From the NCBI GenBank assembly GCA_963665115.1, contig OY762007.1, positions 6,592,001 through 6,656,000 of the forward strand: a DNA stretch of 64,000 nucleotides. Reading direction: 5' to 3'. A program made the position numbers and the translations under genes. The notes under the pieces were generated by a model. It did no database searches, had not been told where the DNA came from, and worked only from the letters and a program-made list of their open reading frames with translations. Source of the stretch: an uncultured Rivularia sp. (GTDB lineage: Bacteria; Cyanobacteriota; Cyanobacteriia; Cyanobacteriales; Nostocaceae). Positions 18,801 through 35,665 of this stretch are shown here, one piece after another. The first letter of the stretch is position 1. Each line of letters begins with the position of its first letter.

Positions 18801-20280
18801 ATGAAAATAATTAAAGCTTCTTTTTGTACTGTATTATCCTTCGCAGCATTATTACAAACTACAAAAGCTATTGCAGCACCTCTCAAAACTTTTACAGAAT
18901 ACTGTCAGCAAAAATCAACGTTACCTAAAGAAACCAAACATACCGTTGAAGTGTTGTTAAAAGAAGCCGATATTCAAAATTGTCAGCAAGCGAATCGCAA
19001 ATTAACGAGTTTGACTGAGATAGACCCTTCTAGATAATAAAATCAGCGATTTAAAACCGCTTGCTAGTTTAACTAATTTGACCAAGCTTAACCTTGTAAG
19101 AAATCAGATAAGAGACTTAAAACCGCTTTCAACCTTAACTAATTTAAATCAGCTTTACCTTTCTAATAATCAAATCAGCGACATCAAACCTCTCTCAACC
19201 TTAACCAATTTAGAGCGACTTTTTCTTTCTGGTAATCAAATCAGCGACATCAAACCTCTCTCAACCTTAACCAATTTAGAGGGACTTGTTCTTAATGAAA
19301 ACAAAATCAGCCACATCAAACCACTCTCAAACTTAACTAATTTAGAATATATTTTACTTCATCAAAATAAAATAAGTGACATCAAACCGCTTTCAAACTT
19401 AACTAATTTGACCGAACTTTACCTTGACGGAATTCAAATAAGTGATATCAAACCACTCTCAAACTTAACTAATTTGACTAGTCTTGCCCTTGGCGAAACT
19501 CAAATAAGTGACATCAAACCCCTCGTAAAGTTAACTAAATTAAATAATCTTTCTCTTGCAATTAATCAAATCAGCGACTTAAAACCGATTTCAAGCTTAA
19601 TTAATTTGGAATCGATTAAACTCTCCGGAAATCAAATCAGTGACTTAAAACCGATTTCAACTTTAACTAATTTAAAATTTATTCATGTGAATGGAACTTC
19701 AGTTAGTGACTTAAAACCACTATCAAATTTAGCTAATTTAGAATATATTTCACTTAATCAAAATAAAATAAGTGACATCAAGCCACTTTCAAAATTAACT
19801 AATTTAGAAGGAATTCAACTTAATAAAAACCAGATTAGTAACATCAAACCGCTGTCAAATTTAACTAATTTGGCTCGTCTTTCACTAAGCCAAAATAAAA
19901 TTAGTGATTTAAAACCGCTCTCAACTTTAACCAATCTATATATTATTCAACTCAGCCAAAACCAGATTAGTAACTTAAAACCGCTTTCCAGCTTAAAAAA
20001 CTCAACCAGAATTTTCCTTACTGGTAATAAAATTAGCGACCTAAAGCCACTTTCAAAATTAAATAGCTTGACTATTCTTAGTCTTGATAGCAATCAAATA
20101 AGCGACGTTAAACCGCTATCTTCTTTAAGAAATTTAGCATATCTTAATTTGGATAAAAATAAAATTAGCGACATCAAACCACTGTCTAACTTAACTAATT
20201 TGACCGATCTTAATCTTAAGGATAATCACATTGAGGATAAAACTTGTCCCATACAGCAAAAATCTGTTTGCAAATTTTAG
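18801..20280 (+). pseudogene. Secreted internalin-like LRR protein with a +1 frameshift at 19025-19027
   Basis: GAG ATA GAC C CTT CTA GAT AAT AAA ATC AGC: removing one C restores EIDLLDNKIS and a single 492-aa ORF with a signal peptide (KAIAAP) and C-cap. Confidence 0.8.
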
Positions 20281-20502
20281 TTATTTATCCTTAAGCTTTC
20301 TTATCGCGATATCTAATAAAATATTTGCTCGATTGCAGATATATTTTTTATTCGGTTTTTACGTGATTTTGTTTATTAACTGCAAATCGCGAGTCTAGTT
20401 TGTTGTAGATGCGTTCAGCTATGCTGCCAAGCTTGCCCTATGTTTTGATGCTGTGCCTTAAGCGATCGCCGTATTATGGTACTTCCTTAACTATCCCCAC
20501 AT

Positions 20503-21075
20503 CAAATCAGCGATTTAAAGCCGCTTGCTAATTTAACTAATTTGACTTCTCTTAGTCTTTCAGAAAACCAAATAAGCAATGTCAGAGCGCTTGCTAATTT
20601 AACTAATTTGACTTCTCTTAGTCTTTCAGGAAATCGAATAAGTGACGTAAAATTGCTTTCTAGTTTAACCAATTTAAATTTTCTCAACCTTCCCTATAAT
20701 CGAATAGTTGATGTTAAACCGCTTGCTAATTTAACTAATTTGACTAGGCTTAACCTGATTGAAAATAAAATCAGCGACATAAAATCGCTTTCTTCAATGA
20801 CCAACTTGACTTGGCTTAACCTTAGCGAAAATAAAATAACCGATATCAAACCACTTTCTAATTTAACCAATTTGAGTCAGCTTTACCTGAAAAAAAATAA
20901 AATAAGTGACGTAAATTCCCTGAAAAACCTAACTAAGCTAAGTTTCCTTTCTCTTGATTTCGATGAAGTCAACGATTTAAAACCACTTTTTCATTTGAAA
21001 TTAGTGGATCTTTCAAGTAAGCAAGCCAAGTTTTTCACTTGTAACTTATTTGCTCCTGCTAATTGCGGATTTTAG
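20503..21075 (+). pseudogene. LRR gene remnant lacking its 5' end
   Basis: The LRR frame (QISDLKPLANL...) starts directly after a truncated copy of the upstream element; no signal peptide or N-cap. Confidence 0.8.
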
Positions 21076-21415
21076 TTACTACGATGTAGAAATAATAAGC
21101 ATTAAGACGACAGATAGTGTCACCGCAATATCAATATTACGGTGACTAATTATTTCTAGGTTTGGAATTGGTTACAATATGCTTTATTTATGTGGTGTTC
21201 AGCTATGCTACCTAAGCTCGCCTTCGATCAACTGCTGTAATTAAATCAACAATTGTAAGGCGATCGCCCTATTATCATACTTCCTTAACTATCCCTACAT
21301 CAAATCTTTAATCAAATCTTGTTAATACCTTACGAAATTAACTTCATGTGTTATGAAGTATGTATTCGGCTGGTCATACAGCATTAAATATCACTATTTG
21401 ATAAGTAGTAATACT

Positions 21416-22645
21416 ATGAAAAAGATAATCGCATCCCTTTGCACTATACTTGCTCTGAATCATGCCAAAGCTATCGCAACACCATTACATAAACAAGATA
21501 GTGTAAAAAGTTTTACAGAATACTGTCAACAAAAATCTACGCTACCAAAAGCAACGAAGCATACCGTTGAAGTGCTGTTAAAAGAAGCTGCTACTCAAGA
21601 TTGTCAGCAAGCGAACCGGAAACTTAGGAGTTTGACAGAACTGAATTTAAAAGAGAAGCAAATAAGTGACCTAAAACCGCTTTCAACCTTAACTAATCTG
21701 ATTAAACTTAACCTTATTAGTAATCAAATAAGTGACATCACACCGCTTTCTTCTTTAACTAATTTGACCAAGCTTAACCTGGGGGGAAATCAAATCAGTG
21801 ACCTAACATCGCTCTCAAAATTAACTAAATTGAATCTGCTTTACCTTTGGGCAAATAGAATCAGTGATATCACACCGCTTTCTTATCTAACTAATTTAAC
21901 TCTACTTAGCCTTGGGGGAAATCAAATAAACGACATCACACCGCTTTCTTCTCTAACTAATTTAACTCTACTTAGCCTTCGGGATAATCAAATCAGTGAA
22001 TTAAAACCGCTCTCTTCGTTAATTAATTTAAAGCAGCTTGAACTTTTAGGAAACCAGATAGAGGAATTAAAACCGCTCTCTTCGTTAACTAATTTAAACT
22101 GGCTTCATCTCAGTTTCAATAGAATCAGCGAATTAAAGCCACTCTCTTCGTTAACTTCTTTAAAGCGACTTAGCCTTAGACAAAACAAGATTAGTAATAT
22201 CAAACCGCTCTCAACACTAACTAATTTAACTAATCTAGAGCTTACCCGAAACCCAATTAGTGACTTAAAACCGCTCTCTTCGTTAACTAATTTGACCCAT
22301 CTTTTCCTTGTTAATAATCAAATCAGCGAGGTTAAACAGTTATCTTCTTTAACTAATTTAAAATTCCTTGCTTTGAATAAAAATCAAATTAGCAACGTAC
22401 AACCACTTTCTAACTTAACTAAATTATCAATACTCCATATTAATGAAAATAAGATAAGTGATGTCAAACCACTTTCTGTGCTTAATAACTTAACTGGGCT
22501 TTCCATTAGGAAAAATCAGATCGACAACCTACAACAGTTTTCTGATTTCACTAATTTAAACTGGCTTTACTTACAGGATAATCCTATCCGCAATAAAACT
22601 TGTCCCATACACTTAAAATCTGTATGTTACTTAGATCCGTACTAA
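21416..22645 (+). CDS. Secreted internalin-like LRR protein
   Basis: MKKIIASLCTILALNHAKAIA signal without a lipobox, N-cap, LRRs, C-cap NPIRNKTCPIHLKSVC. Confidence 0.9.
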   Translation: MKKIIASLCTILALNHAKAIATPLHKQDSVKSFTEYCQQKSTLPKATKHTVEVLLKEAATQDCQQANRKLRSLTELNLKEKQISDLKPLSTLTNLIKLNLISNQISDITPLSSLTNLTKLNLGGNQISDLTSLSKLTKLNLLYLWANRISDITPLSYLTNLTLLSLGGNQINDITPLSSLTNLTLLSLRDNQISELKPLSSLINLKQLELLGNQIEELKPLSSLTNLNWLHLSFNRISELKPLSSLTSLKRLSLRQNKISNIKPLSTLTNLTNLELTRNPISDLKPLSSLTNLTHLFLVNNQISEVKQLSSLTNLKFLALNKNQISNVQPLSNLTKLSILHINENKISDVKPLSVLNNLTGLSIRKNQIDNLQQFSDFTNLNWLYLQDNPIRNKTCPIHLKSVCYLDPY

Positions 22646-22992
22646 AATCTCTTAGCAAGATTTTTAGATTGCTCTACCGGAGGCGATCGCCCACTTTAAA
22701 ACACATGAATCAAGTTTACCGATAAGCTTTTCATGGTGAACGACTATATCTAATCGCAACAAAGCTATTTAATTTCCTTCATAGTATTTTGATAGAAAAG
22801 CTAATTTTAACTAAGTTTTGCGCCATTGAAAATATAGTTGCAGTGCTTGCCTATTGCTCTATGATTTATTTTTCCTTAATATCCCCACATCAAATCTTTA
22901 ATCAAACCCAGTTGATACCTTACGAAATCAATATTGTATGTTATGAAGTATGTATTAGATTAAAAAAAAACTGTCACCTTTATAACTTTAAT

Positions 22993-23277
22993 ATGCGTAT
23001 AAACACTAAATTACGAAGAATCCTATTTATTAGCGCTTTATTTGTCCTGAATTATGGAAAAGCAATAGCAAATCCAATAGCTCAGCAAAATGACATTAAA
23101 ACTTTTACAGAATATTGTCAACAAAAATCGACACTCCCAAAAGAAACTAAACATACTGTTGAAGTGCTGTTAAAAAAAGCTGGTACTAAAGATTGTCAGC
23201 AAGCGAATCGGAAATTAACGAGTTTGACCGAGCTTGATATCAGCATCTTCGAGGTTGCGGTGACTTTATTTTTTTAG
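22993..23277 (+). pseudogene. LRR gene remnant (signal peptide and N-cap only)
   Basis: MRINTK...KAIANP plus N-cap, then LTELDIS fused to the right half of the terminator hairpin seen at 18624-18662. Confidence 0.8.
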
Positions 23278-23414
23278 CAATAAACCCTTGGCTATATCCC
23301 AGCATCGAATCTGCAATCCAATTGAATTTATAATGCGAAACTTCAGTAATTTTCGTCATTTCAATGTATTAAATATTAGCTATAAATAAACTAAATAATC
23401 TTTTTTCTTAAAAT

Positions 23415-24641
23415 ATGAATATAATTAGAGCCTCTTTTTGTACTGTATTATCCTTAAGTGCATTATTACAAACTACGAAAGCGATCGCAGCACCTTTCCA
23501 ACCGAGGATTAAAACTTTTACAGAATATTGTCAGCAGAAATCTACACTACCAAAAGCAACAAAACATACTGTTGAAGTACTGTTGGAAAAAGCTGCTACT
23601 CAAGATTGTCAGCAAGCGAATCAAAGACTTAGCAATTTGAATTCCCTTAGTCTTGGATTCAAAAAAATTGTCAACTTACAACCGCTGTCTTCTTTCAGTA
23701 ATCTGACTTTCCTAAATCTGGGAGGGAATGAAATTGAGGATATACAACCGCTCTCAAACTTGACTAATTTAAACAAACTCTGGCTTAACAACAATAAAAT
23801 CGGCGATATTAAGCCACTTTCAAATTTGACTGGTTTAACCGATCTTATTCTTAGAGAAAATCAGATAGACAATTTAAAGCCGCTTTCTAATTTGACTAAC
23901 TTGGCTTATCTTAGTCTGGTAAAAAATAAAATCAACAATGTTGAAGGACTTTCTTCTTTAACCAGATTGACTCGACTCTATGTTCAAAGTAATAAAATTA
24001 GCGACATCAAACCGCTTTCCTCTTTAACAAATTTGACTCAACTCAATCTCAGCAATAATAAAATCAAGAATGCTGAAGGACTTTCTTCCTTAACTAATTT
24101 GACTGAGCTTAGCCTTAGTGTGAATAAAAATATTGATATAAAACCGCTTCGAGGATTAACTAACTTGACCAAGCTAGATATTGCATTTAGTAGAATTAAT
24201 AGTATAGAATCGCTCTCAAGGTTAACTAACTTGACTAAGCTAGAACTTGGGTTTAATAAAATTACCAATATAGAACCACTTTCTTCTTTGACTAGTTTGA
24301 CTGAGCTTGTCCTTTATGGCAATAAGATCAGCGATCTAAAGCCGCTTGCAAACTTAACTAATTTGAATTCTCTTAACCTATTGCACAATAAAATCAATGA
24401 TATAAAGCCGCTTTCAAACTTAACTAATCTGAATTCTCTTTGGCTCGCAGGTAATGAAATTAGCGATGTAAAGCCGCTTTCTAATTTAACTAATTTAGAT
24501 TTCCTTTGGCTCTCAAACAATAAAATCAATGATATAAAATCGTTAGGTGGTTTAAATCAGTTAACTGCTCTCTTAGTTAATAATAATCCTATTCAAGACA
24601 AAACTTGCCCCATACAGCAAAAGTCTGTATGTCTTTTTTAA
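23415..24641 (+). CDS. Secreted internalin-like LRR protein
   Basis: Signal KAIAAP, N-cap, LRRs, C-cap NPIQDKTCPIQQKSVC. Its upstream 170 bp and N-terminus closely match those of the 18801 locus. Confidence 0.9.
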   Translation: MNIIRASFCTVLSLSALLQTTKAIAAPFQPRIKTFTEYCQQKSTLPKATKHTVEVLLEKAATQDCQQANQRLSNLNSLSLGFKKIVNLQPLSSFSNLTFLNLGGNEIEDIQPLSNLTNLNKLWLNNNKIGDIKPLSNLTGLTDLILRENQIDNLKPLSNLTNLAYLSLVKNKINNVEGLSSLTRLTRLYVQSNKISDIKPLSSLTNLTQLNLSNNKIKNAEGLSSLTNLTELSLSVNKNIDIKPLRGLTNLTKLDIAFSRINSIESLSRLTNLTKLELGFNKITNIEPLSSLTSLTELVLYGNKISDLKPLANLTNLNSLNLLHNKINDIKPLSNLTNLNSLWLAGNEISDVKPLSNLTNLDFLWLSNNKINDIKSLGGLNQLTALLVNNNPIQDKTCPIQQKSVCLF

Positions 24642-27285: not shown

Positions 27286-27357
27286 GCCGATGTAGCTCAG
27301 TGGTAGAGCACACCCTTGGTAAGGGTGAGGTCACGAGTTCGACTCTCGTCATCGGCT
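27286..27357 (+). tRNA. trnT: tRNA-Thr (GGT)
   Basis: GCCGATG/CATCGGC acceptor stem, TAGCTCAGTGGTAGAGC D-arm, loop TTGGTAA, GTTCGAC T-loop. Confidence 0.95.
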
Positions 27358-27441: not shown

Positions 27442-27669
27442 TTAGTCAAACTTCACACCAAAATCAACACCTAGTACTTCTTCTATTCTTTGTAAGGTTT
27501 CAATAGGTAAGGCTTTAGTTTCTTCAGCTTCAATTCTATACCAGTTCATTGTCGTCATTGGTATTTGGCGACAAACTTCAGCCAGCGAGCGACTATCAGC
27601 TTCTCGTGCTTGACGAATACGCGAACCTAATTTTGGAATCTCTATTTCTAGTATTTTTTTGACTTTCAT
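27442..27669 (-). CDS. XRE-family HTH transcriptional regulator
   Basis: LGSRIRQARE..RSLAEVCRQI.MT..NWYRIE...LPIETL.RIEEVLGV. Confidence 0.8.
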   Translation of the reverse strand: MKVKKILEIEIPKLGSRIRQAREADSRSLAEVCRQIPMTTMNWYRIEAEETKALPIETLQRIEEVLGVDFGVKFD

Positions 27670-27787
27670 CAATATTTCCTTACTGTCATATCCTCCTTTG
27701 TTCTAAATCATTATGTTACATCTGATAAATAGTAAAGCATAAAGTGTAACTTTATGGTTGAATAATCATGGTGCAGAATGAGAAACT

Positions 27788-27985
27788 ATGAAACAATCAA
27801 CTGCAAGCGCTTTACTGAAAGCGTACAATTCATTACAGGAAATAGTTGTGGAGCTTTACAACTAATTTCAAAAAGCAGTGGAAAATAGAGATGATGCAGA
27901 TGCAAGTTTGCTTGAGTCAAGAGCAGAAATTTTGTTTGAACAAGCGGAAGCGATTATAGCTGTTTTGGAGGAGCAAAATGGATAG
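27788..27985 (+). pseudogene. Small helical protein gene with an internal stop
   Basis: MKQSTASALLKAYNSLQEIVVELYN*FQKAVENRDD...LEEQNG*: in-frame TAA at 27863-27865; the frame continues and overlaps the next ATG. Confidence 0.6.
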
Positions 27986-28187
27986 AGAAGAAGCGCAAAA
28001 TTTAGCGAATGATGCTAAAAACTTAAGTCAGCAGGGATTAGAGTTGATTCAGCAAGGAAAATATCGCGAGGGACATAATTTAATACGTCAAGCTGTAGAA
28101 GCTGGTAGAAAATGCCGAAAGTTTTTGGAACAGCCAAAAATAGAAAGAGGTTTGGGAATACTTGAACAAATGCATGAACAAGGTTAA
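27978..28187 (+). CDS. Small helical hypothetical protein
   Basis: 69 aa; GGAGGAG ribosome-binding site; followed by the hairpin CCTCCG-gtga-CGGAGG plus T-run (28209-28235). Confidence 0.7.
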   Translation: MDREEAQNLANDAKNLSQQGLELIQQGKYREGHNLIRQAVEAGRKCRKFLEQPKIERGLGILEQMHEQG

Positions 28188-28255
28188 GAATGCTAAAGAT
28201 AATTTTAGCCTCCGGTGACGGAGGTTATTTTTTTGCTTGATCGCAAATATCCAAG

Positions 28256-28546
28256 GTGATGTATGATTTGTTGTTGGACAATCCAAAATCCAAACCCAAA
28301 TCGCTAGATGAATACACCACACACAACTTTATTTGGAATATTGCTGATGATGTATTAAAAGACGTTTATGTTCGTGGAAAATACCGACATATAGTTCTAC
28401 CAATGACGATGTTAAGACCTTTGGATTGTTTGTTGGAACCCACTAAGGATAAAATGCTTGAGCGGTATCAGCAATTGGAAGAAGGTAAGTTCGGAAAAAA
28501 GGCGATCGCCCAGAAAAAGATAGATGATAAAAATATTACAGGGTAA
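28256..28546 (+). pseudogene. hsdM: Type I restriction-modification HsdM N-terminal fragment
   Basis: NFIWNIADDVLKDVYVRGKYRHIVLPMTMLRPLDCLLEPTKDKML matches the HsdM N-terminal domain; no methyltransferase core follows. Confidence 0.75.
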
Positions 28547-28596
28547 GAGTTTAGTGTACTTTTATTAGCTAATAAGACAACTAATAACAAACGACT

Positions 28597-29751
28597 ATGA
28601 ATGATAATCGAAATGATAGTTATGCTAATCTTCCTGATGAACTTTTAGAAGATATTTTGGAGGATGCACCAAAAATAGCAGATAAAATCAAACCGTTATT
28701 TGAAGAATTACAACAACAAAGAAAAACAATACACCAAACATTAGAAGATAATGATTTAATTTGTAGAGTTGGTGATTTAGACAATCCTGCCAGTCCTTCT
28801 GTTGCTGCTATTGATGGTGGACAAGCGATTGAAAAATCTATTGGAGCTGATACTGTAATCGCTGTAGGTGTTGGTGTTGAAGGATTAGTAAGAGAAGATA
28901 AGCGTAAATGGGGTTCAGTTCAATATAAAAACTGGCAAGATGTTCTTCCTCATAGTTCTGAGAGTAATCCTAAAGTTACTAGAGGGGCGATGACTGCTTT
29001 AGAATTATTAGTCATTAGTCAAACTCCCCACGATGTTGTAATTGCTGATGGTTCTCATCAAACACCAGTAATAGGAATTAATAGTTTAACAAGTATGTCA
29101 ACATTAGATGAGCCTCATTTACAACAGGTTGCATGGGACATTCTGAATCAATTTAATGTGATAGATTCTCTTAATAAAGCTATGACAAATCCCAACGTTG
29201 TTTATATGGTTAAATATGATTCTTCACAAGAAATTGGCTTAAAATTTCTTAGTGATTTTAATTCTAAGCTTGATGATAAAACAATTATGACATTAATTTT
29301 AAAATCAGATGAGTATACAAAACCTTTACCCGTAGGTCAAACTCCTAAAACAAAAAAAGTTTGGGGTGATTTATATATTTCAGTTTCAAATAAATTCGAT
29401 TTTCATGGGAAACGAGACAGTATTAAAGAGGGATTAAACAAAGCAATCATCTTACCCAAAAATCATAAAATATATTTTACTTACTATAAACCTTATCAGT
29501 GGTCGCCTGCCTATAGAATAGAAATGAAAGAGAATTGTGCAAAAACAGATATTGAATTTGCAAAAGTTTTAAAAGCAGTTAAAGAACAAGTTGTTTCTAC
29601 TGAAATTAAAGAACCTTACCCTCAGTATTTAGCTGATATGATGGCTAAAAGCATTAGTGGCGGTTTAGAAGCATTAAGAGCCGTTATACAGTACCAATTC
29701 AGTGATAATCAAGATTTTCTTCAACTACTAACTCAATCATACAGAACCTAA
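28597..29751 (+). CDS. NurA-like (RNase H-fold) nuclease
   Basis: VAAIDGG, LELLV, VVIADGS and C-terminal EPYPQYLADMMAK fit the NurA motif series; lies directly before a HerA-like ATPase. Confidence 0.75.
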   Translation: MNDNRNDSYANLPDELLEDILEDAPKIADKIKPLFEELQQQRKTIHQTLEDNDLICRVGDLDNPASPSVAAIDGGQAIEKSIGADTVIAVGVGVEGLVREDKRKWGSVQYKNWQDVLPHSSESNPKVTRGAMTALELLVISQTPHDVVIADGSHQTPVIGINSLTSMSTLDEPHLQQVAWDILNQFNVIDSLNKAMTNPNVVYMVKYDSSQEIGLKFLSDFNSKLDDKTIMTLILKSDEYTKPLPVGQTPKTKKVWGDLYISVSNKFDFHGKRDSIKEGLNKAIILPKNHKIYFTYYKPYQWSPAYRIEMKENCAKTDIEFAKVLKAVKEQVVSTEIKEPYPQYLADMMAKSISGGLEALRAVIQYQFSDNQDFLQLLTQSYRT

Positions 29752-29775
29752 TTAATATTTTCACGAGGGAAAGAG

Positions 29776-31578
29776 ATGGATTTACTAGATTTATTAAAAG
29801 ACCACTCAAATCAATTTAATATCGGTAGTGTTGGTTCACCAAGTAATACAACAGAAATTATTATTGACATTAATCAAAAAAGCGAACAAAAAAGAAATTT
29901 AGGTCAATTAGTATGTCTTATTCAACCACAAGAACAAGAACAACTAGTCGTTATTGGACAAATTAGCGAAATAGAAACTAAAAATCGTTGGCACGAAGAT
30001 TTGACTTTTAGAGGAATAATTAAACGTAGAGGTTCACTTCCTCATCTGAGTGGAAAAGCAGACGTAAGAACAGCTAAATTAAATGTACAAGCTTGTTTTA
30101 GTATTGCATTAGATGGAAAAATTAGTGAAGGAACATTAGGTACTTCTCCAGCAACAGGTACGCCTATTTTTTCAGTGAGAGATGAAATTTTAGATAAACT
30201 TTTAGAACAGTATAAAAATCAAATTATTTATTTAGGTAATGCCTATGCCACCGATGTAAAAATGCCGCTTTGGTTAAAGCATTTTGATAGAGGAGAAGGA
30301 GGTGCAGGAGAAGCTTATCATATCGGAGTTTTTGGTAAAAGTGGTTCAGGAAAATCTGGTTTAGCTGCTTATACTTTGTTAGGATATGGCAAGCATAAAA
30401 ATATGGGAATTATTTTTATCGATCCTCAGAATCAATTTGCTAGCGATACTGATTTACCTTTTAAATTACATGATTCTCTAAGGAGTTTGGGTAGAACAGT
30501 TAATATTTATCGTTTAACAAATCAAATTAGATTAGGAACTAAAAAAAATGCCGTGAAGTTGTTTGTTAATCTTTTACTTAAAGCAGATTTTTATAGAAAT
30601 ATTGGAGTTAGAAATAAAGAGAATCAAGAATATGCTTCTGAGGAAGTAGATCGAATCATAAGAAATATTTTATCAGGCTTTCAGCCAAGACTTGAATTAA
30701 AAAATTCTCCTGATGATTTATTGCGTAGAGTATTAACTGAACTAAGAGACGATGATAATGCCTTACAAAGAATATATGCTACTACACAACCAAGACAAAG
30801 ACTAGAACAAGCTCTTGGTAATCTTCTTATTGAAAGAATAGAACTTCAAAGAGTTAAAGAGCAAATTTGGCAACCTGTATTAGATTTATTTCTGGAAAAT
30901 GATAGCGCAGGTAATCATAGGACTTCTTTATGGCATATTGTTCAAAAAGCTGCTACAGATGAGCAAAAACCTATTGTATTTTTAGATATTAAAGGAGAAG
31001 GTACAACATTTGCCGATAATGAGGAAATTAAAGCTCTTATTCTGAAAGAAATTAGTATCACTCTAAAAGTCGCTGGAGAAGAAGCATTTAAGCATGATAC
31101 AAAATTAAACTGTTTGATTTGTCTCGATGAAGCCCATCGATTTGTTAAATCTTCTTTTGGCAGTGGTGATAATAGTGAAATGTCTAATTTAACACGAGCT
31201 TTTGTTGATGGAGTAAGAACAACTAGAAAATATGGTCTTGGTTATATGTTTATTACTCAAACTATTGCATCTTTACATAAAGAGATTATTCAACAATTAA
31301 GACTTTATGCTTTTGGATATGGTCTTACTTCAGGTAGTGAATATAGACAAATTGAAGAATTAGTAAGTGATAGACAAGCCTTAAGTTTATATAAATCATT
31401 TGTAGATCCTCAAAGTAGCAGACAATATCCTTTTATGTTTCTAGGTCCAATTTCTCCTTTATCTTTTATAGGTTCGCCTCTATTTATTCAAATGTTTACA
31501 GAATTTAGTAAGTTTAAAGAGGCTAATAAATTAGTAAAACAATCTCAAGGTAATTTATTTAATAATGATATATTGTAA
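29776..31578 (+). CDS. HerA/FtsK-superfamily ATPase (HAS-barrel plus DUF87 type)
   Basis: N-terminal beta-rich barrel; HIGVFGKSGSGKS (Walker A), IFIDPQNQF, CLDEAHRF (Walker B), RKYGLGYMFITQ. Confidence 0.85.
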   Translation: MDLLDLLKDHSNQFNIGSVGSPSNTTEIIIDINQKSEQKRNLGQLVCLIQPQEQEQLVVIGQISEIETKNRWHEDLTFRGIIKRRGSLPHLSGKADVRTAKLNVQACFSIALDGKISEGTLGTSPATGTPIFSVRDEILDKLLEQYKNQIIYLGNAYATDVKMPLWLKHFDRGEGGAGEAYHIGVFGKSGSGKSGLAAYTLLGYGKHKNMGIIFIDPQNQFASDTDLPFKLHDSLRSLGRTVNIYRLTNQIRLGTKKNAVKLFVNLLLKADFYRNIGVRNKENQEYASEEVDRIIRNILSGFQPRLELKNSPDDLLRRVLTELRDDDNALQRIYATTQPRQRLEQALGNLLIERIELQRVKEQIWQPVLDLFLENDSAGNHRTSLWHIVQKAATDEQKPIVFLDIKGEGTTFADNEEIKALILKEISITLKVAGEEAFKHDTKLNCLICLDEAHRFVKSSFGSGDNSEMSNLTRAFVDGVRTTRKYGLGYMFITQTIASLHKEIIQQLRLYAFGYGLTSGSEYRQIEELVSDRQALSLYKSFVDPQSSRQYPFMFLGPISPLSFIGSPLFIQMFTEFSKFKEANKLVKQSQGNLFNNDIL

Positions 31579-31580
31579 AC

Positions 31581-32645
31581 ATGACAATTGATGAATTATA
31601 TGAATTAAAACAAGAATTATTAACTAAATTAGCAAATTATGGAGTTGAATGGGATTTTGATTCAGAAAAGCTAATTGTGGATGATTTAAAACATATGCAA
31701 AAACAATTAGCTGAACATACTAATTTACGAGGTTTAAAATATGAAAGTAAATTCAAAAACTATTTAGCTAAACCTCAAGAAATAGATATTCTTAAAATTA
31801 ATCCTTATTTAAAAGTTGTCAAAACTCAAGCAGAAAGAGAGCTTTGGGCTTATGCCACCTCTTTTTGGTCAATTCCAGTTACAAATGGCTATGGGAGAAG
31901 AATTCGTTTTTTAGTATTTGACGAACAAAATAATAAATTAATCGGTATTTTAGGATTAAGTGACCCTATTATTGGTTTAGGAATAAGAGATAAATATATT
32001 GGCTGGACAAAAGAGCAGAGATTGCAAAGATTATATAATTGCATGACTGCGTATATTTCAGGCGCAGTACCACCTTATAACTTAGCTCTTGGAAGCAAGT
32101 TAATTGCTTTGTGTTTAATGTTTCCAGAAATTAGAAGAGTTTTTCATGATAAATATAAAGATAAGATATCTCTTATTTCTGGTCAAAATAAAAAAGCTAA
32201 TCTTGTCTATATAGATACTTTAGGAGCTTTTGGAAAGTCTGCGATATACACTCGTTTAATGAATTGGAAATTTATTGGTTATACAAAAGGTCAAAGTCAT
32301 TTACATATAACAGCTAATGGAAGTTGGGAATTAATTAAAAAAGCTGTTCCTGAAGATTTTTTTAATACTTACAAATTTGGTCAAGGTCCTAATTGGAAAA
32401 TGAGAGTTCTAAAAAAAGGGCTTAGAGAATTAGGATTTTCAGAACATATGTTAAGTATTGGCTGGCAAAGAGGATATTATAGTTGCCCTTTAGCTGATAA
32501 TTGGCAAGAATATCTTTCAGGAGAATCTAATCAACCACAATGGAAAAAATTTAGCAAAACTGAATTAATCGAATATTGGAAAAATAGATGGATTATTCCG
32601 AGATTAGAAAAGTTAGAGCATAATTTAGAAAAATTGATTCTATAA
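31581..32645 (+). CDS. DUF4338 / Druantia DruA-like protein
   Basis: WSIPVTNGYGRRIRFLVFD....KLIGILGLSDP....IRD.YIGW, GAVPPYN..LG.KL.A and FGQGPNWK resemble DruA motifs as I recall them. Confidence 0.7.
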   Translation: MTIDELYELKQELLTKLANYGVEWDFDSEKLIVDDLKHMQKQLAEHTNLRGLKYESKFKNYLAKPQEIDILKINPYLKVVKTQAERELWAYATSFWSIPVTNGYGRRIRFLVFDEQNNKLIGILGLSDPIIGLGIRDKYIGWTKEQRLQRLYNCMTAYISGAVPPYNLALGSKLIALCLMFPEIRRVFHDKYKDKISLISGQNKKANLVYIDTLGAFGKSAIYTRLMNWKFIGYTKGQSHLHITANGSWELIKKAVPEDFFNTYKFGQGPNWKMRVLKKGLRELGFSEHMLSIGWQRGYYSCPLADNWQEYLSGESNQPQWKKFSKTELIEYWKNRWIIPRLEKLEHNLEKLIL

Positions 32646-32648
32646 TCC

Positions 32649-33044
32649 CTACTTCCAAGCTCTCACCTTCCCATCCTTATGAACTTTCGCAATAAAAGGT
32701 GCTGCTGTTTTGTTAAAAAAGCGCTTCATCGAAGGTACTGCTTGGGCAAATATCTCTGCCATTTCGCTACCGGATAAATTACCTGAAACCAAAACGAACA
32801 TACAAGCACCGGAATTTTGAACAGCCATCATTTCTAAACGTCGATGGGCAATTTTTTTATCAGCAGTCAAAATTATCCAACCCTTTGATGCTACTACAGG
32901 CAACCAATCTGTATCGGGAGTTGCTTGGTTAAAATGGTTGTCGTGAATCTCGACTAATTCACCTATATCTATTAAAGCATTAACAACATGAGTTTTTCCC
33001 AAAGAACGATCGATAAAAAATATAATTTCAAGTTTTTCACTCAT
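32649..33044 (-). CDS. PIN-like toxin (VapC45/PIN_10 type)
   Basis: FFIDRSLG, H..HF....PD.DWL, GWIILTADKKI; 4-nt overlap with the DUF433 gene. Confidence 0.8.
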   Translation of the reverse strand: MSEKLEIIFFIDRSLGKTHVVNALIDIGELVEIHDNHFNQATPDTDWLPVVASKGWIILTADKKIAHRRLEMMAVQNSGACMFVLVSGNLSGSEMAEIFAQAVPSMKRFFNKTAAPFIAKVHKDGKVRAWK

Positions 33045-33742
33045 GCAGCTAATGCCAATTCATAACGGATAGCTTCTTCTACTTTCAAGCGATCGCACTT
33101 ATAATCTAGTGCCAAATCATCAATTGATTCTCCAGCACCATACCTTCCTACCAATATACTAGTTGGTATTCCCGTTCCTTCTAAAACAGGTTGTCCAAAG
33201 GATACTAAAGGATTTATAACAATCAACTTTGGCGTTGCAGTTTCTTTTGTGCGAGTAAAAGGATAAAGTGTAGTCGGTAAATCATCTTCATCCCATTCAA
33301 TTCTTTTTAAATAAATTTGCACAATTTCTGGTATGACTAACTGTCCACTTTTTGAAGTATTTACCAAATATCCCAACTGTTCAATAAATAAATCTATTCC
33401 ATCGGTATAAAGCTTTTTGTTAGCAAGAGGATGTTGCATTCCCGTGTGGCTTTGAAGATATGAAACCCCAAGTCTTACCTTTTCTAAAGGTACTTTATGA
33501 TAGCGTCGAATAGCATTAAGAACGTGTAATTCGATCAAATTAGTGAAAGACAATAATCGTTCGTGTGGCTCTGGAATAGTAATAATTGGCTCGAAACGTT
33601 TTGAACCGGCTTTAGTTCGATATCGAGCGCCAAATACCCAAGAACGCACGGTAGAATATGGTACGCGCAAATGGTGTACTGCTTCTGCTACGCTATAAGT
33701 CCCAATGTTGCGGGGATCTTTACCTTGATAAAGCTTGCTCAA
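33041..33742 (-). CDS. DUF433-domain antitoxin (VapB45 type)
   Basis: N-terminal HTH (YSVAEA...VPYSTVRSW), LSFTNLIEL, C-terminal INPLVSFGQPVLEGTGIPT...GESIDDLA.DY. Confidence 0.85.
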   Translation of the reverse strand: MSKLYQGKDPRNIGTYSVAEAVHHLRVPYSTVRSWVFGARYRTKAGSKRFEPIITIPEPHERLLSFTNLIELHVLNAIRRYHKVPLEKVRLGVSYLQSHTGMQHPLANKKLYTDGIDLFIEQLGYLVNTSKSGQLVIPEIVQIYLKRIEWDEDDLPTTLYPFTRTKETATPKLIVINPLVSFGQPVLEGTGIPTSILVGRYGAGESIDDLALDYKCDRLKVEEAIRYELALAA

Positions 33743-33802
33743 CAGTTAATCTCCATCTACCTGTTATATTTTTTTATTTTAAAGCTTAATTGTTGCTTTA
33801 AC

Positions 33803-34417
33803 TCAAAACTCAACATCATCAATCAATTCTGCCAAAGCCGACTGTTGATTATCTGCTGATAAATTATCAAATACTTGATTTAAAACATCTGGAGATACAT
33901 TATTCACAAACCAATCATCGCCGGGATTTTCTTGAATATCTAAAAAATATTTTAAGCGTTCTTCTATAGCTTGCTTATCACCTTTATCTATTTGTCCAAT
34001 TCTAGTTAACCAATCACCGCTATCATCTTTAAAACAACTTGCATCAACAGTGAATATCTGATGAGCTAAAGCAAAAGATTGTTTTTCAAATCCATTACTC
34101 TTTGTGGGATTAATTGGGTAAGCTGTTGGTAAACCTTTATTCTTTTCTAAAATACTGAAAGTTAAAGGAATTGCAGTAAAAGTATCTATATAGTTGACAC
34201 CGTTTTTAAATTTATCGGATTCCCAGATGATATAAGCCTGTTCTCTGCGAAATAGCATACTATAGTTAATTATTTGTCTGCAATCACCAGTTTTACAGGA
34301 AATTTTATCCGGTTTATCTAATTTATAAAAGTGAAGATGATCGAGTTTACAACGAAGAAATACGCGGTAGGGATTTATTAAATATATCCAACCTTGTCTA
34401 GGTTTGTTTCCAGCCAC
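33803..34417 (-). CDS. PemK/MazF-like toxin with an insertion
   Basis: PRQGWIYLI, TAIPLT, NGFEKQSFALAHQIFTVD, RIGQI......IEERL; GTG start. Confidence 0.65.
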   Translation of the reverse strand: MAGNKPRQGWIYLINPYRVFLRCKLDHLHFYKLDKPDKISCKTGDCRQIINYSMLFRREQAYIIWESDKFKNGVNYIDTFTAIPLTFSILEKNKGLPTAYPINPTKSNGFEKQSFALAHQIFTVDASCFKDDSGDWLTRIGQIDKGDKQAIEERLKYFLDIQENPGDDWFVNNVSPDVLNQVFDNLSADNQQSALAELIDDVEF

Positions 34418-34426
34418 TTGATAATC

Positions 34427-34909
34427 CTAATTCAGTTCACTAACTAATTTTTCTCGCTCTAATTGCAGGTTAAGTTTAACTTTTTCTTCTGGTTTATGTT
34501 TCTCTTTAACCTCAACCATTGGAGCAGTACTATACACATAATCTGATAACTGCTTAATTTTATCTTGTCCGGAACCAGACCATTCTCTTCTAATATTATC
34601 AATAATTAATTTTAAGCTAACAGGTAACTGTAGATCGTCGATATTACCTGCTTTTGAACCAAGTTTAATAAACGTAGTATTGTATTCAGTTTCTAAATTA
34701 ATTTCTTTACCATTCATTTTATCCAAAGCAGAATTTATATCTTCATCCCAAGGACCTAAATGATAATAATACCAATTTAGTTGAGTCAGTTGTTTACTTG
34801 TCCACTTCACTGCATAAAGGTCAGCTAAATACAAAAACCGGATCAGCTGTATTTTACTAATATGACCTTTTGTTGCGTATGCAAAGTATTTTATCAGTTT
34901 GTCTAACAT
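34427..34909 (-). CDS. Panacea (DUF4065/SocA)-like antitoxin
   Basis: KIQLIRFLYLADL.......LT...WYYYHLGPW and YVYSTAPM; directly upstream of the MazF-like gene. Confidence 0.7.
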   Translation of the reverse strand: MLDKLIKYFAYATKGHISKIQLIRFLYLADLYAVKWTSKQLTQLNWYYYHLGPWDEDINSALDKMNGKEINLETEYNTTFIKLGSKAGNIDDLQLPVSLKLIIDNIRREWSGSGQDKIKQLSDYVYSTAPMVEVKEKHKPEEKVKLNLQLEREKLVSELN

Positions 34910-34983
34910 TGCTTTTAGCTATGCATTGTATAGGTTAGATATACCACAATAGTTTCAAAGTATAAGTTGATTTAATGCATTAA

Positions 34984-35382
34984 TCAAATAAACAATCCAA
35001 CATCAGTATTAAAAAAATCACCCAAAGCTTTTGCTTGTGCTTTGCTAATTTCTCGCTTCCCATTAATAATTTCTGATACTACACCACTAGAACCAATTAC
35101 ATCAATTAAATCTGCTTGTTTCAAACCACGAACTTCCATCAAATGCAGAAGCATCGACAATGGAGTTGTTTCACCCATCGGATATGCATCATTTTCATAT
35201 TTTTCTATTAATGCAATCAATAATTCATATAAAGCTGATTCTTCCGATGTTCTATTATTTTTGTGTGCCAGTTCCTCCGCTATTGCTATCGCTTGTTCAT
35301 TTTCCGCGTCATTTGTAATTACTTTCGGTTGGTATTTACCTAACAACTGAGCGTAAGTTTCTCGATTAAAAGTAAGGGTCAT
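34984..35382 (-). CDS. higA: HigA-family antitoxin
   Basis: LIEKYE...YP, LMEVRGLKQADL....GSSGVVSEIINGKREIS. Confidence 0.85.
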   Translation of the reverse strand: MTLTFNRETYAQLLGKYQPKVITNDAENEQAIAIAEELAHKNNRTSEESALYELLIALIEKYENDAYPMGETTPLSMLLHLMEVRGLKQADLIDVIGSSGVVSEIINGKREISKAQAKALGDFFNTDVGLFI

Positions 35383-35665
35383 TTTTCCACTTGTCTTTAT
35401 CGTATTCGGCGTGAGTTAAAATATATTTTACAAAAATAGTCTGGTCTACATATACAATATCTACAATTAGCCGATATGTATTACCTTTGATATTGAAAAC
35501 AGTCAAATTCCCTACTGATTCAGCAGTGGAATATATTGCTTGCACCTCGATTAAATTAGTCCATTTTGCTTTACTAACAAATTTGTACCAATTATTTAAA
35601 GCTTCGTAGGAATCGGGATGAGTACCCCAAAAATCCCGAAGTTTTTTACGACTAATTATATGCAT
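35366..35665 (-). CDS. higB: HigB-family mRNA interferase
   Basis: MHIISRKKLRDFW..HP, VFNIKGNTYRLIV, THAEYDK; toxin-first order. Confidence 0.9.
   Translation of the reverse strand: MHIISRKKLRDFWGTHPDSYEALNNWYKFVSKAKWTNLIEVQAIYSTAESVGNLTVFNIKGNTYRLIVDIVYVDQTIFVKYILTHAEYDKDKWKNDPYF

Follow-up and report, generated by a model that had tools for sequence, protein, structure and literature searches.

The nurA-herA-druA locus

The window analysed here is a stretch of 64,000 nucleotides from contig OY762007.1 of an uncultured Rivularia sp. (assembly GCA_963665115.1), a cyanobacterium with a genome of 8.69 Mb and 37.9% GC, and our subject is a group of three genes on its + strand, hereafter the triad. 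As the original prediction had described them, and as we could read again from the open reading frames (ORFs), the genes are intact, co-oriented and separated by gaps of 24 and 2 nt: a nurA-like nuclease gene with an RNase H fold (28597..29751, 384 aa; PF09376), a herA-like ATPase gene (29776..31578, 600 aa; PF01935, DUF87) and druA (DUF4338; 31581..32645, 354 aa), the product of which has a GNAT fold and a pI of 9.4 and is a predicted self-DNA-modifying enzyme. The domain names given earlier hold when checked with Pfam hidden Markov models, each match being above its cut-off (25.3 bits for NurA PF09376, cut-off 21; 39.1 bits for DUF87 PF01935 on HerA, cut-off 23.2; 225 bits for DruA PF14236, cut-off 27), and the PADLOC model DruA1 matches the third gene with an E-value of 1.9e-86. 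A contig of public run X4, from the same organism, covers positions 27589-34000; it differs in 24 letters and has a single gap, which lies beyond the triad at 33769. Since this contig crosses the triad gap-free, the three frames are no product of faulty assembly.

The genes are indeed AT-rich, with 30.7% GC in the triad against 37.9% in the genome; a GC content as low as this is found in just 0.1% of the 17,380 4-kb genome windows, and GC at third codon positions (GC3) is 0.12-0.17. The reported absence of sites of the highly iterated palindrome HIP1 inside the triad also holds, but its value as evidence does not, and we dropped it as a sign of foreign origin, as 22% of 4-kb genome windows share this absence. 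A promoter and terminator scan remained at chance level (19 against 21.4 expected), and RNA-library contigs of one mat sample, which contain a relative's triad, were set aside as a sign of its transcription since they contain adjoining DNA too.

Among 57 aligned relatives of NurA, residues D73 (DGG motif), E136 and D151 are invariant, and the same applies, among 41 relatives of HerA, to Walker A (187-193, with K193), Walker B (D451/E452), R484 and Q495; the catalytic roles of NurA E136 and D151 and of HerA R484, which we take to be the Arg finger, are assigned from the known motifs of the families. The features of repair-type NurA-HerA, namely the acidic residues of the nuclease, Walker A and B and the Arg finger, are thus present here, and the DG motif of NurA aligns with P. 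furiosus NurA. TdpABC is reportedly a phosphorothioate restriction-modification (R-M) system, said to have been described by An et al. in 2025 (PDB 8wet, 8wfd), and its TdpB chain 8wfd_G ranks 12th (E 1e-4) in a Foldseek search with the AlphaFold2 model of NurA (pLDDT 91), the top match being archaeal NurA 2ygk (E 2e-11). A HerA profile matches Sir2-HerA, archaeal HerA, DUF4297-HerA and TdpA at E-values from 2e-10 to 2e-8, TdpA standing at 2e-8; the likeness to TdpAB is of superfamily level and is not specific to TdpA or TdpB. The NCBIfam models of anti-phage HerA give 12-13 bits on this HerA, against cut-offs of 800-850. A canonical NurA, which scores 148 bits, and a second HerA-like gene lie elsewhere in the same genome, mutually unlinked (G000:C1:2358140-2359405 and 7367786-7369549).

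Linkage, distribution and genomic slot

Using a NurA alignment, we found 86 loci in GTDB genomes and surveyed the best 80 of them. All three genes are present in 61 of these, spread over at least 13 bacterial phyla: 48 have the order druA-nurA-herA, eight (all cyanobacteria) the order nurA-herA-druA as here, one a herA::druA deletion fusion, and four a convergent druA. In one archaeal locus the third gene is a short DUF4338 gene in divergent orientation, in two of the 80 druA and nurA stand without herA, and another two are cut off by contig edges. Outside Armatimonadota, a PF14236 gene adjoins in 64 of 66 loci, both misses being at contig edges. In an actinomycete variant (L059:7882-9381; also L054, L064 and L079), druA is convergent or separated and a gene for an HTH/IrrE-type peptidase precedes nurA; the DruA of L059 bears an N-terminal HTH.

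Converse searches starting from DruA agree with this survey, and the tie of the third gene to nurA-herA that the original prediction proposed to look for elsewhere is thus a recurrent one. PF14236 matches occur in 7 of 400 other cyanobacterial genomes, six of the seven within nurA-herA-druA operons. Among 351 genomes of Chloroflexota (the phylum of locus L043; counts include the centre genome), 15 of 17 full-length DruA genes adjoin NurA or HerA, 14 directly before NurA and one before a HerA of the second lineage described below, while the other two stand beside a DruE-like helicase and at a contig end; two of 13 shorter or weaker PF14236 matches likewise precede NurA. Plasmids gave five full-length DruA matches, and the four annotated ones examined are all helicase-linked and of Druantia type. 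Within the samples of Chloroflexota and Cyanobacteriota, full-length DruA occurs mainly in the triad and not in Druantia, and annotations there as 'Druantia protein DruA' therefore mostly point to an unnamed triad system.

The suggestion of a horizontal, defence-like spread is upheld by several observations. The NurA subfamily is present in 1 of 24 congeners, and the GC content of the triad is below that of its flanks in 48 of 51 loci. A defence or mobile gene is found at most two genes away in 30 of 45 loci (25 without counting the linked type IIG gene), a count without a control that covers 150 of 188 non-redundant neighbours, 38 being unscanned. This type IIG restriction-methylase gene comes right after herA in eight of the 80 loci and on one viral contig; the four-gene subtype so formed, with an enzyme of ~1060 aa, is seen in L029, L043, L049, L053, L062, L069, L071, L077 and L193. 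The patchy presence in congeners, the canonical NurA elsewhere in the genome and the lack of mre11-rad50 at this locus also speak against a vertically inherited core repair locus. The triad is a conserved, horizontally spread cassette carried as mobile cargo.

The place that it occupies is a swappable cargo slot of 4.4 kb (28190..32643), bounded by blastn against congeners and holding the triad and a remnant of hsdM. Congeners share the flanks up to ~28190-28233 and again from 32643 or 33800, and on one contig of run X5 the stretch between 28233 and 33840 is replaced by 665 other letters. In the same slot, congener G007 carries a UG34 reverse transcriptase (DRT-type) and a NERD helicase, G013 an REase-like gene, G021 a set of Z1 helicase, HATPase, STAS and PIN genes, and G003 STAS and PIN; G019 is not syntenic at the slot. 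This slot is a defence hot spot with exchangeable defence-like cargo. The genes of G007 (L102:5883-9205) are convergent and form a candidate DRT system according to PADLOC.

The setting between a decayed hsdM and three toxin-antitoxin (TA) pairs, proposed earlier, was recovered with Pfam. The N-terminal hsdM remnant upstream (28256..28546, + strand, 96 aa) matches PF12161 (HsdM_N) with 41.2 bits and PADLOC MTase_I with an E-value of 2e-19; after the triad and outside it, on the - strand at 32649..35665, come the pairs PIN_10/DUF433, PemK-MazF/Panacea and HigB/HTH, the first two of which are common to congeners without the triad. The tRNA-Thr(GGT) gene said to lie ~1.2 kb upstream (27286..27357, + strand) ends 1240 nt before nurA and is the left anchor of the variable region; a search of the genome for another exact match to its final 14-25 bases, as a tRNA-derived attachment (att) repeat, found none.

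Exchange of the third gene and the fold of DruA

We built a quick IQ-TREE phylogeny of DruA, in which L167 and the phage rows were flagged as long branches. In this tree the cyanobacterial DruAs form one clade (SH-like approximate likelihood ratio test, SH-aLRT, 99) that is far from the DruAs of L011 and L012, though the NurA and HerA of these two loci are the nearest non-cyanobacterial relatives of those in the window. The same clade, with DruAs 61% identical, serves a second, unrelated NurA-HerA lineage (L096-L098, L111), present in 3 of 400 cyanobacteria and every time with DruA; the best PDB sequence matches of this lineage are TdpA (E 1e-23) and TdpB (E 0.16), and its NurA was not found in plasmids or viral contigs. 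The nurA-herA-druA order of the window appears to have arisen through replacement of druA. The TdpAB-like second lineage is found at L096:5406-9396, L097, L098, L111 and L210, and in L210 DruA directly precedes HerA.

Three of five other cyanobacterial genomes that match the NurA profile of the window have a DruA triad. In three more distant NurA-HerA pairs, an N6/N4 DNA methylase gene stands directly upstream (operons L100:4063-7991, L178:5188-9120 and L179:4813-9004), one of them in a genome that also holds a DruA triad, and in L063, L213 and L214 the third gene is a short DUF4338. The operon of L100 is located inside a decayed type I R-M locus, beside probable Tn7-like genes, and the methylase of L179 has a weak ParB-like N-terminus. 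The third gene is exchangeable and usually a candidate DNA modifier. In the non-cyanobacterial triads (n=42), DruA tree distances follow those of NurA (Spearman 0.90) and HerA (0.91), a match that shows co-inheritance only because kin are not independent.

The AlphaFold2 model of DruA (pLDDT 95) has a GNAT fold, and its top VIA match is Mom of phage Mu (8bv8; Z 10.4, rmsd 4.2, 173 aligned). A two-step profile chain leads from DruA to the phage DUF4338 of 250 aa (P 97%, E 3e-11) and from there to the Mom family (P 87%, E 4e-6); the Mom family model PF25680 has no match in DruA, and hhalign of the archaeal short DUF4338 against Mom fails (P 0.3%). Triad DruAs are basic (median pI 9.8). An ESM Atlas lead for DruA, "GNAT-phage-like" at 0.83, was not used. 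DruA is like Mom (PF25680; PDB 8bv8; PMC13219725) in having a GNAT fold with insertions and in being a basic protein; it differs in being cellular and coupled to a nuclease. Adenine modification by the Mom family depends on Gly-tRNA.

Homologues of DruA, 24-30% identical, are found in the replisome modules of T4-like phages, among the polymerase, sliding clamp and clamp loader, near Mom-like genes of phrog_1384 (17 of 58 loci) and glycosyltransferases, and also in Pelagibacter phages. These proteins, of ~400 aa and ~250 aa, come from L115-L163 and include those of phages HTVC008M, Mosig and S-SCSM2R. Of 49 residues conserved in triad DruAs, 42 are kept in four of four DruE-linked DruAs and 22 in six of six phage DruAs. 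R106, D114, R136, D137, K173, Y223 and R297 are among the positions that all three groups have in common.

A proposed self-marking defence and its alternatives

We think it rather probable that the triad is a modification-restriction defence in the manner of TdpABC, with DruA as the writer of a self-mark and NurA-HerA destroying unmarked DNA. According to this proposal, DruA would mark host DNA chemically, likely with an acyl group on adenine, HerA would load at the free end of incoming linear DNA and feed NurA, and NurA would degrade what is unmarked, phage or plasmid DNA being the target. By analogy with the mechanism reported for TdpABC, marks would stop or release the NurA-HerA machine, and breaks in host DNA would therefore be spared. 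Among known systems, TdpABC is the one that the triad would most resemble in its working, a GNAT taking the place of the writer: both have three genes, and in TdpABC, according to PMC12914056 and PMC13223576, TdpA is the HerA-type ATPase, TdpB the NurA-fold nuclease and TdpC the single self-modifying writer. The second DruA-linked lineage is closer to TdpAB than the window pair, whose likeness to TdpAB does not exceed its likeness to archaeal HerAs or to other HerAs of defence. The third gene of the triad is a PF14236 GNAT and not the sulfur-inserting TdpC, no other gene lying in the slot, and the predicted mark would therefore be on the base and not on the backbone.

The choice of adenine as the predicted base comes from a PacBio result on type I Druantia and not from the window locus. 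PacBio calls m6A on the basis of kinetics. The 'm6A' signal that it gave at CAGCTGNC in host DNA was confined to cells carrying Druantia I, a system stated to be without a Methylase domain and whose gene for the adenine mark the authors describe as unidentified (Ojima 2024, 10.1101/2024.04.14.589459). According to PMC13219725, the mark of Mom is also visible in PacBio kinetics, and CAGCT, the motif of Druantia I, falls, as it happens, within the loose consensus SASNY of Mom. DruB-E have no methylase Pfam match; a host methylase recruited by Druantia is a possible source of the adenine mark.

With Druantia type I the triad shares DruA (32-35% identity, with the 42 of 49 conserved residues noted above) and, if DruA is a writer, the marking of host adenines (Ojima 2024). 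By contrast, the effector here is NurA-HerA, the DruAs of Druantia group in a separate clade (SH-aLRT 98), and none of the 10 proteins of 28256-35665 matches the PADLOC models of DruB-D, which match a true Druantia locus at E < 1e-100. The earlier statement that druE is missing from the window extends to the complete genome, in which PF09369 (DUF1998/MZB) finds nothing, eight of 14 control genomes being positive. Sir2-HerA (Nezha) and DUF4297-HerA also pair a HerA motor with an effector enzyme in defence; Pfam and PADLOC find no Sir2 or DUF4297 partner in the triad. Both of these systems are reported to be blocked by Gam, a protein that binds DNA ends. Judged by their defining genes, the triad is not Druantia, TdpABC, Sir2-HerA or DUF4297-HerA, and the view that it is not a described system stands: no PADLOC or NCBIfam system matches at cut-off, and our literature searches, with subscription papers and bioRxiv supplements largely outside their scope, found no description of it. 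The papers of Iyer (2009, 2013), as cited in PMC7824862, treat Mom-type systems in bacterial genomes and may already show the triad neighbourhood.

Several observations weigh against this proposal. Fourteen Armatimonadota loci hold a closely related NurA without DruA, and among draft genomes with these loci PF14236 is present in 0 of 5 and HerA, mostly unlinked, in 5 of 5. L011 and L012 (two of the 80 loci) add mre11-rad50, as repair operons do, and by Foldseek the structure of NurA is nearer archaeal repair NurA than TdpB. Two distant NurA-HerA pairs on plasmids (L182, L183) have no recognisable modifier adjoining, and in the metagenome copy L107 druA is cut short by a premature stop beside an intact nurA and herA. 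A DNA-recognition domain was not identified. Regarding DruA itself, the lead of Mom over ordinary GNATs is below 1 Z (10.4 against 9.7, a tie by the VIA rule), Foldseek E-values are only 0.03-0.05, and a direct comparison with Mom by sequence or profile gives no match; and in the indirect two-step alignment the essential R111 and S124 of Mom correspond to I159 and L174. Because of these last replacements, the chemistry of Mom is probably not conserved in DruA, and the donor is likely to be different too. In the loci without DruA (L013-L024, L030, L076), NurA and HerA may have been domesticated as a nuclease-motor pair. The operons druA-nurA-herA-mre11-rad50 lie at L011:8839-17856 and L012:8838-17746, and the HerA ORF of L011 has an N-terminal HNH domain.

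The original prediction had DruA coupled to NurA-HerA, perhaps as a sensor or regulator; the linkage stands, and the role assigned to DruA is less well supported in view of its GNAT fold nearest to Mom, its swaps and its methylase stand-ins. A defence system in which DruA turns the nuclease on, either by acylating HerA, NurA or a protein of the phage or by reading modified phage DNA, is nonetheless the strongest of the alternatives, and we regard it as unlikely though worth serious attention. Most GNATs act on proteins or small molecules. Many ordinary GNATs are within 1-2 Z of Mom for DruA, Mom's catalytic residues are apparently absent, and outside cyanobacteria DruA distances track those of NurA and HerA, as those of binding partners would; such matching trees are also expected from co-inheritance alone. 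Rakesh 2024 (PMC10853773) treats DUF4338 as a GNAT and suggests a protein target for it when fused to DndF, as a possible co-effector. Against this regulatory role, DruA has moved between unrelated NurA-HerA lineages and also occurs in DruE systems, with DndF (according to that same source) and in phage replisomes, and DNA methylases take its place. The swaps and the replacement by methylases are better fitted by a free-standing DNA-marking enzyme than by a dedicated subunit.

An accessory module for DNA-end processing or repair, with DruA adjusting resection and with stress tolerance, not defence, as the reason for its spread, seems to us improbable. The window pair shares both folds and the catalytic motifs with repair NurA-HerA, which works with Mre11-Rad50 and which the literature presents as a resection machine in archaea; the mre11-rad50 operons, the Armatimonadota without DruA, the 15 of 45 scanned loci without a defence or mobile gene at most two genes away and the shared neighbours of five of six Nitrospirales loci are in its favour. 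Unlike a repair pair, that of the window is patchy, AT-rich and tied to DruA: the presence in 1 of 24 congeners, the canonical NurA elsewhere, the low GC in 48 of 51 loci, the defence-cargo slot, the type IIG fourth gene in 8 of 80 loci and at least 11 broken copies all argue against such a module.

These broken copies come from a count of lesions among the 86 loci, made to test the predicted absence of losses confined to druA: the damage is limited to nurA or herA in seven loci and to druA in one (L107), and extends to both in three. The direction is as expected; the asymmetry of 7/8 is not significant given the gene lengths (P ~0.3; binomial p 0.28). All these loci were retrieved through NurA, and errors of assembly may account for some of the stops. 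Little credence is due to a selfish addiction module with NurA-HerA as poison and DruA as antidote, which would have little effect on phages and would mainly protect itself or the mobile element that carries it. The 7/8 single lesions in nurA or herA, the cyanobacterial deletions that take parts of the nuclease or motor gene together with druA (L004, L006, fusion protein P0044) and the position among TA pairs would speak for this reading, and against it stand the weakness of that skew in NurA-found loci and the location of nearly all copies off plasmids and viral contigs (no close plasmid match, one viral contig); as R-M systems are often addictive, it overlaps with the self-marking defence. 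The internal deletions of P0044, L004:11175-12809 and L006:11174-13284 yield in-frame nurA::druA or herA::druA fusions or clip both genes.

If the self-marking defence is accepted, a bolder version of it is tentative and, to our mind, rather doubtful: that DruA writes a DNA base modification undescribed in cells (acyl or aminoacyl, read by PacBio as m6A), that the triad is the first R-M system with a GNAT writer, and that NurA-HerA forms a plug-in family served by TdpC, a methylase or DruA. Were this true, the orphan adenine mark of type I Druantia would be accounted for by DruA as well, and the DruA homologues of T4-like aquatic phages would serve to mark the DNA of these phages. Should the self-marking defence itself hold, bacterial self/non-self discrimination would gain a new writer chemistry, and NurA-HerA would be a general restriction engine with interchangeable marks. 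DruA has been without an assigned function since Druantia was described; the triad isolates it with only two partners, both of known biochemistry, and its function is therefore directly testable here.

Apart from the triad, the window contains, at 19078-24641, tandem internalin-like leucine-rich-repeat genes, some of them apparently split, and low GC and skew suggest that this region reaches back to ~9000.

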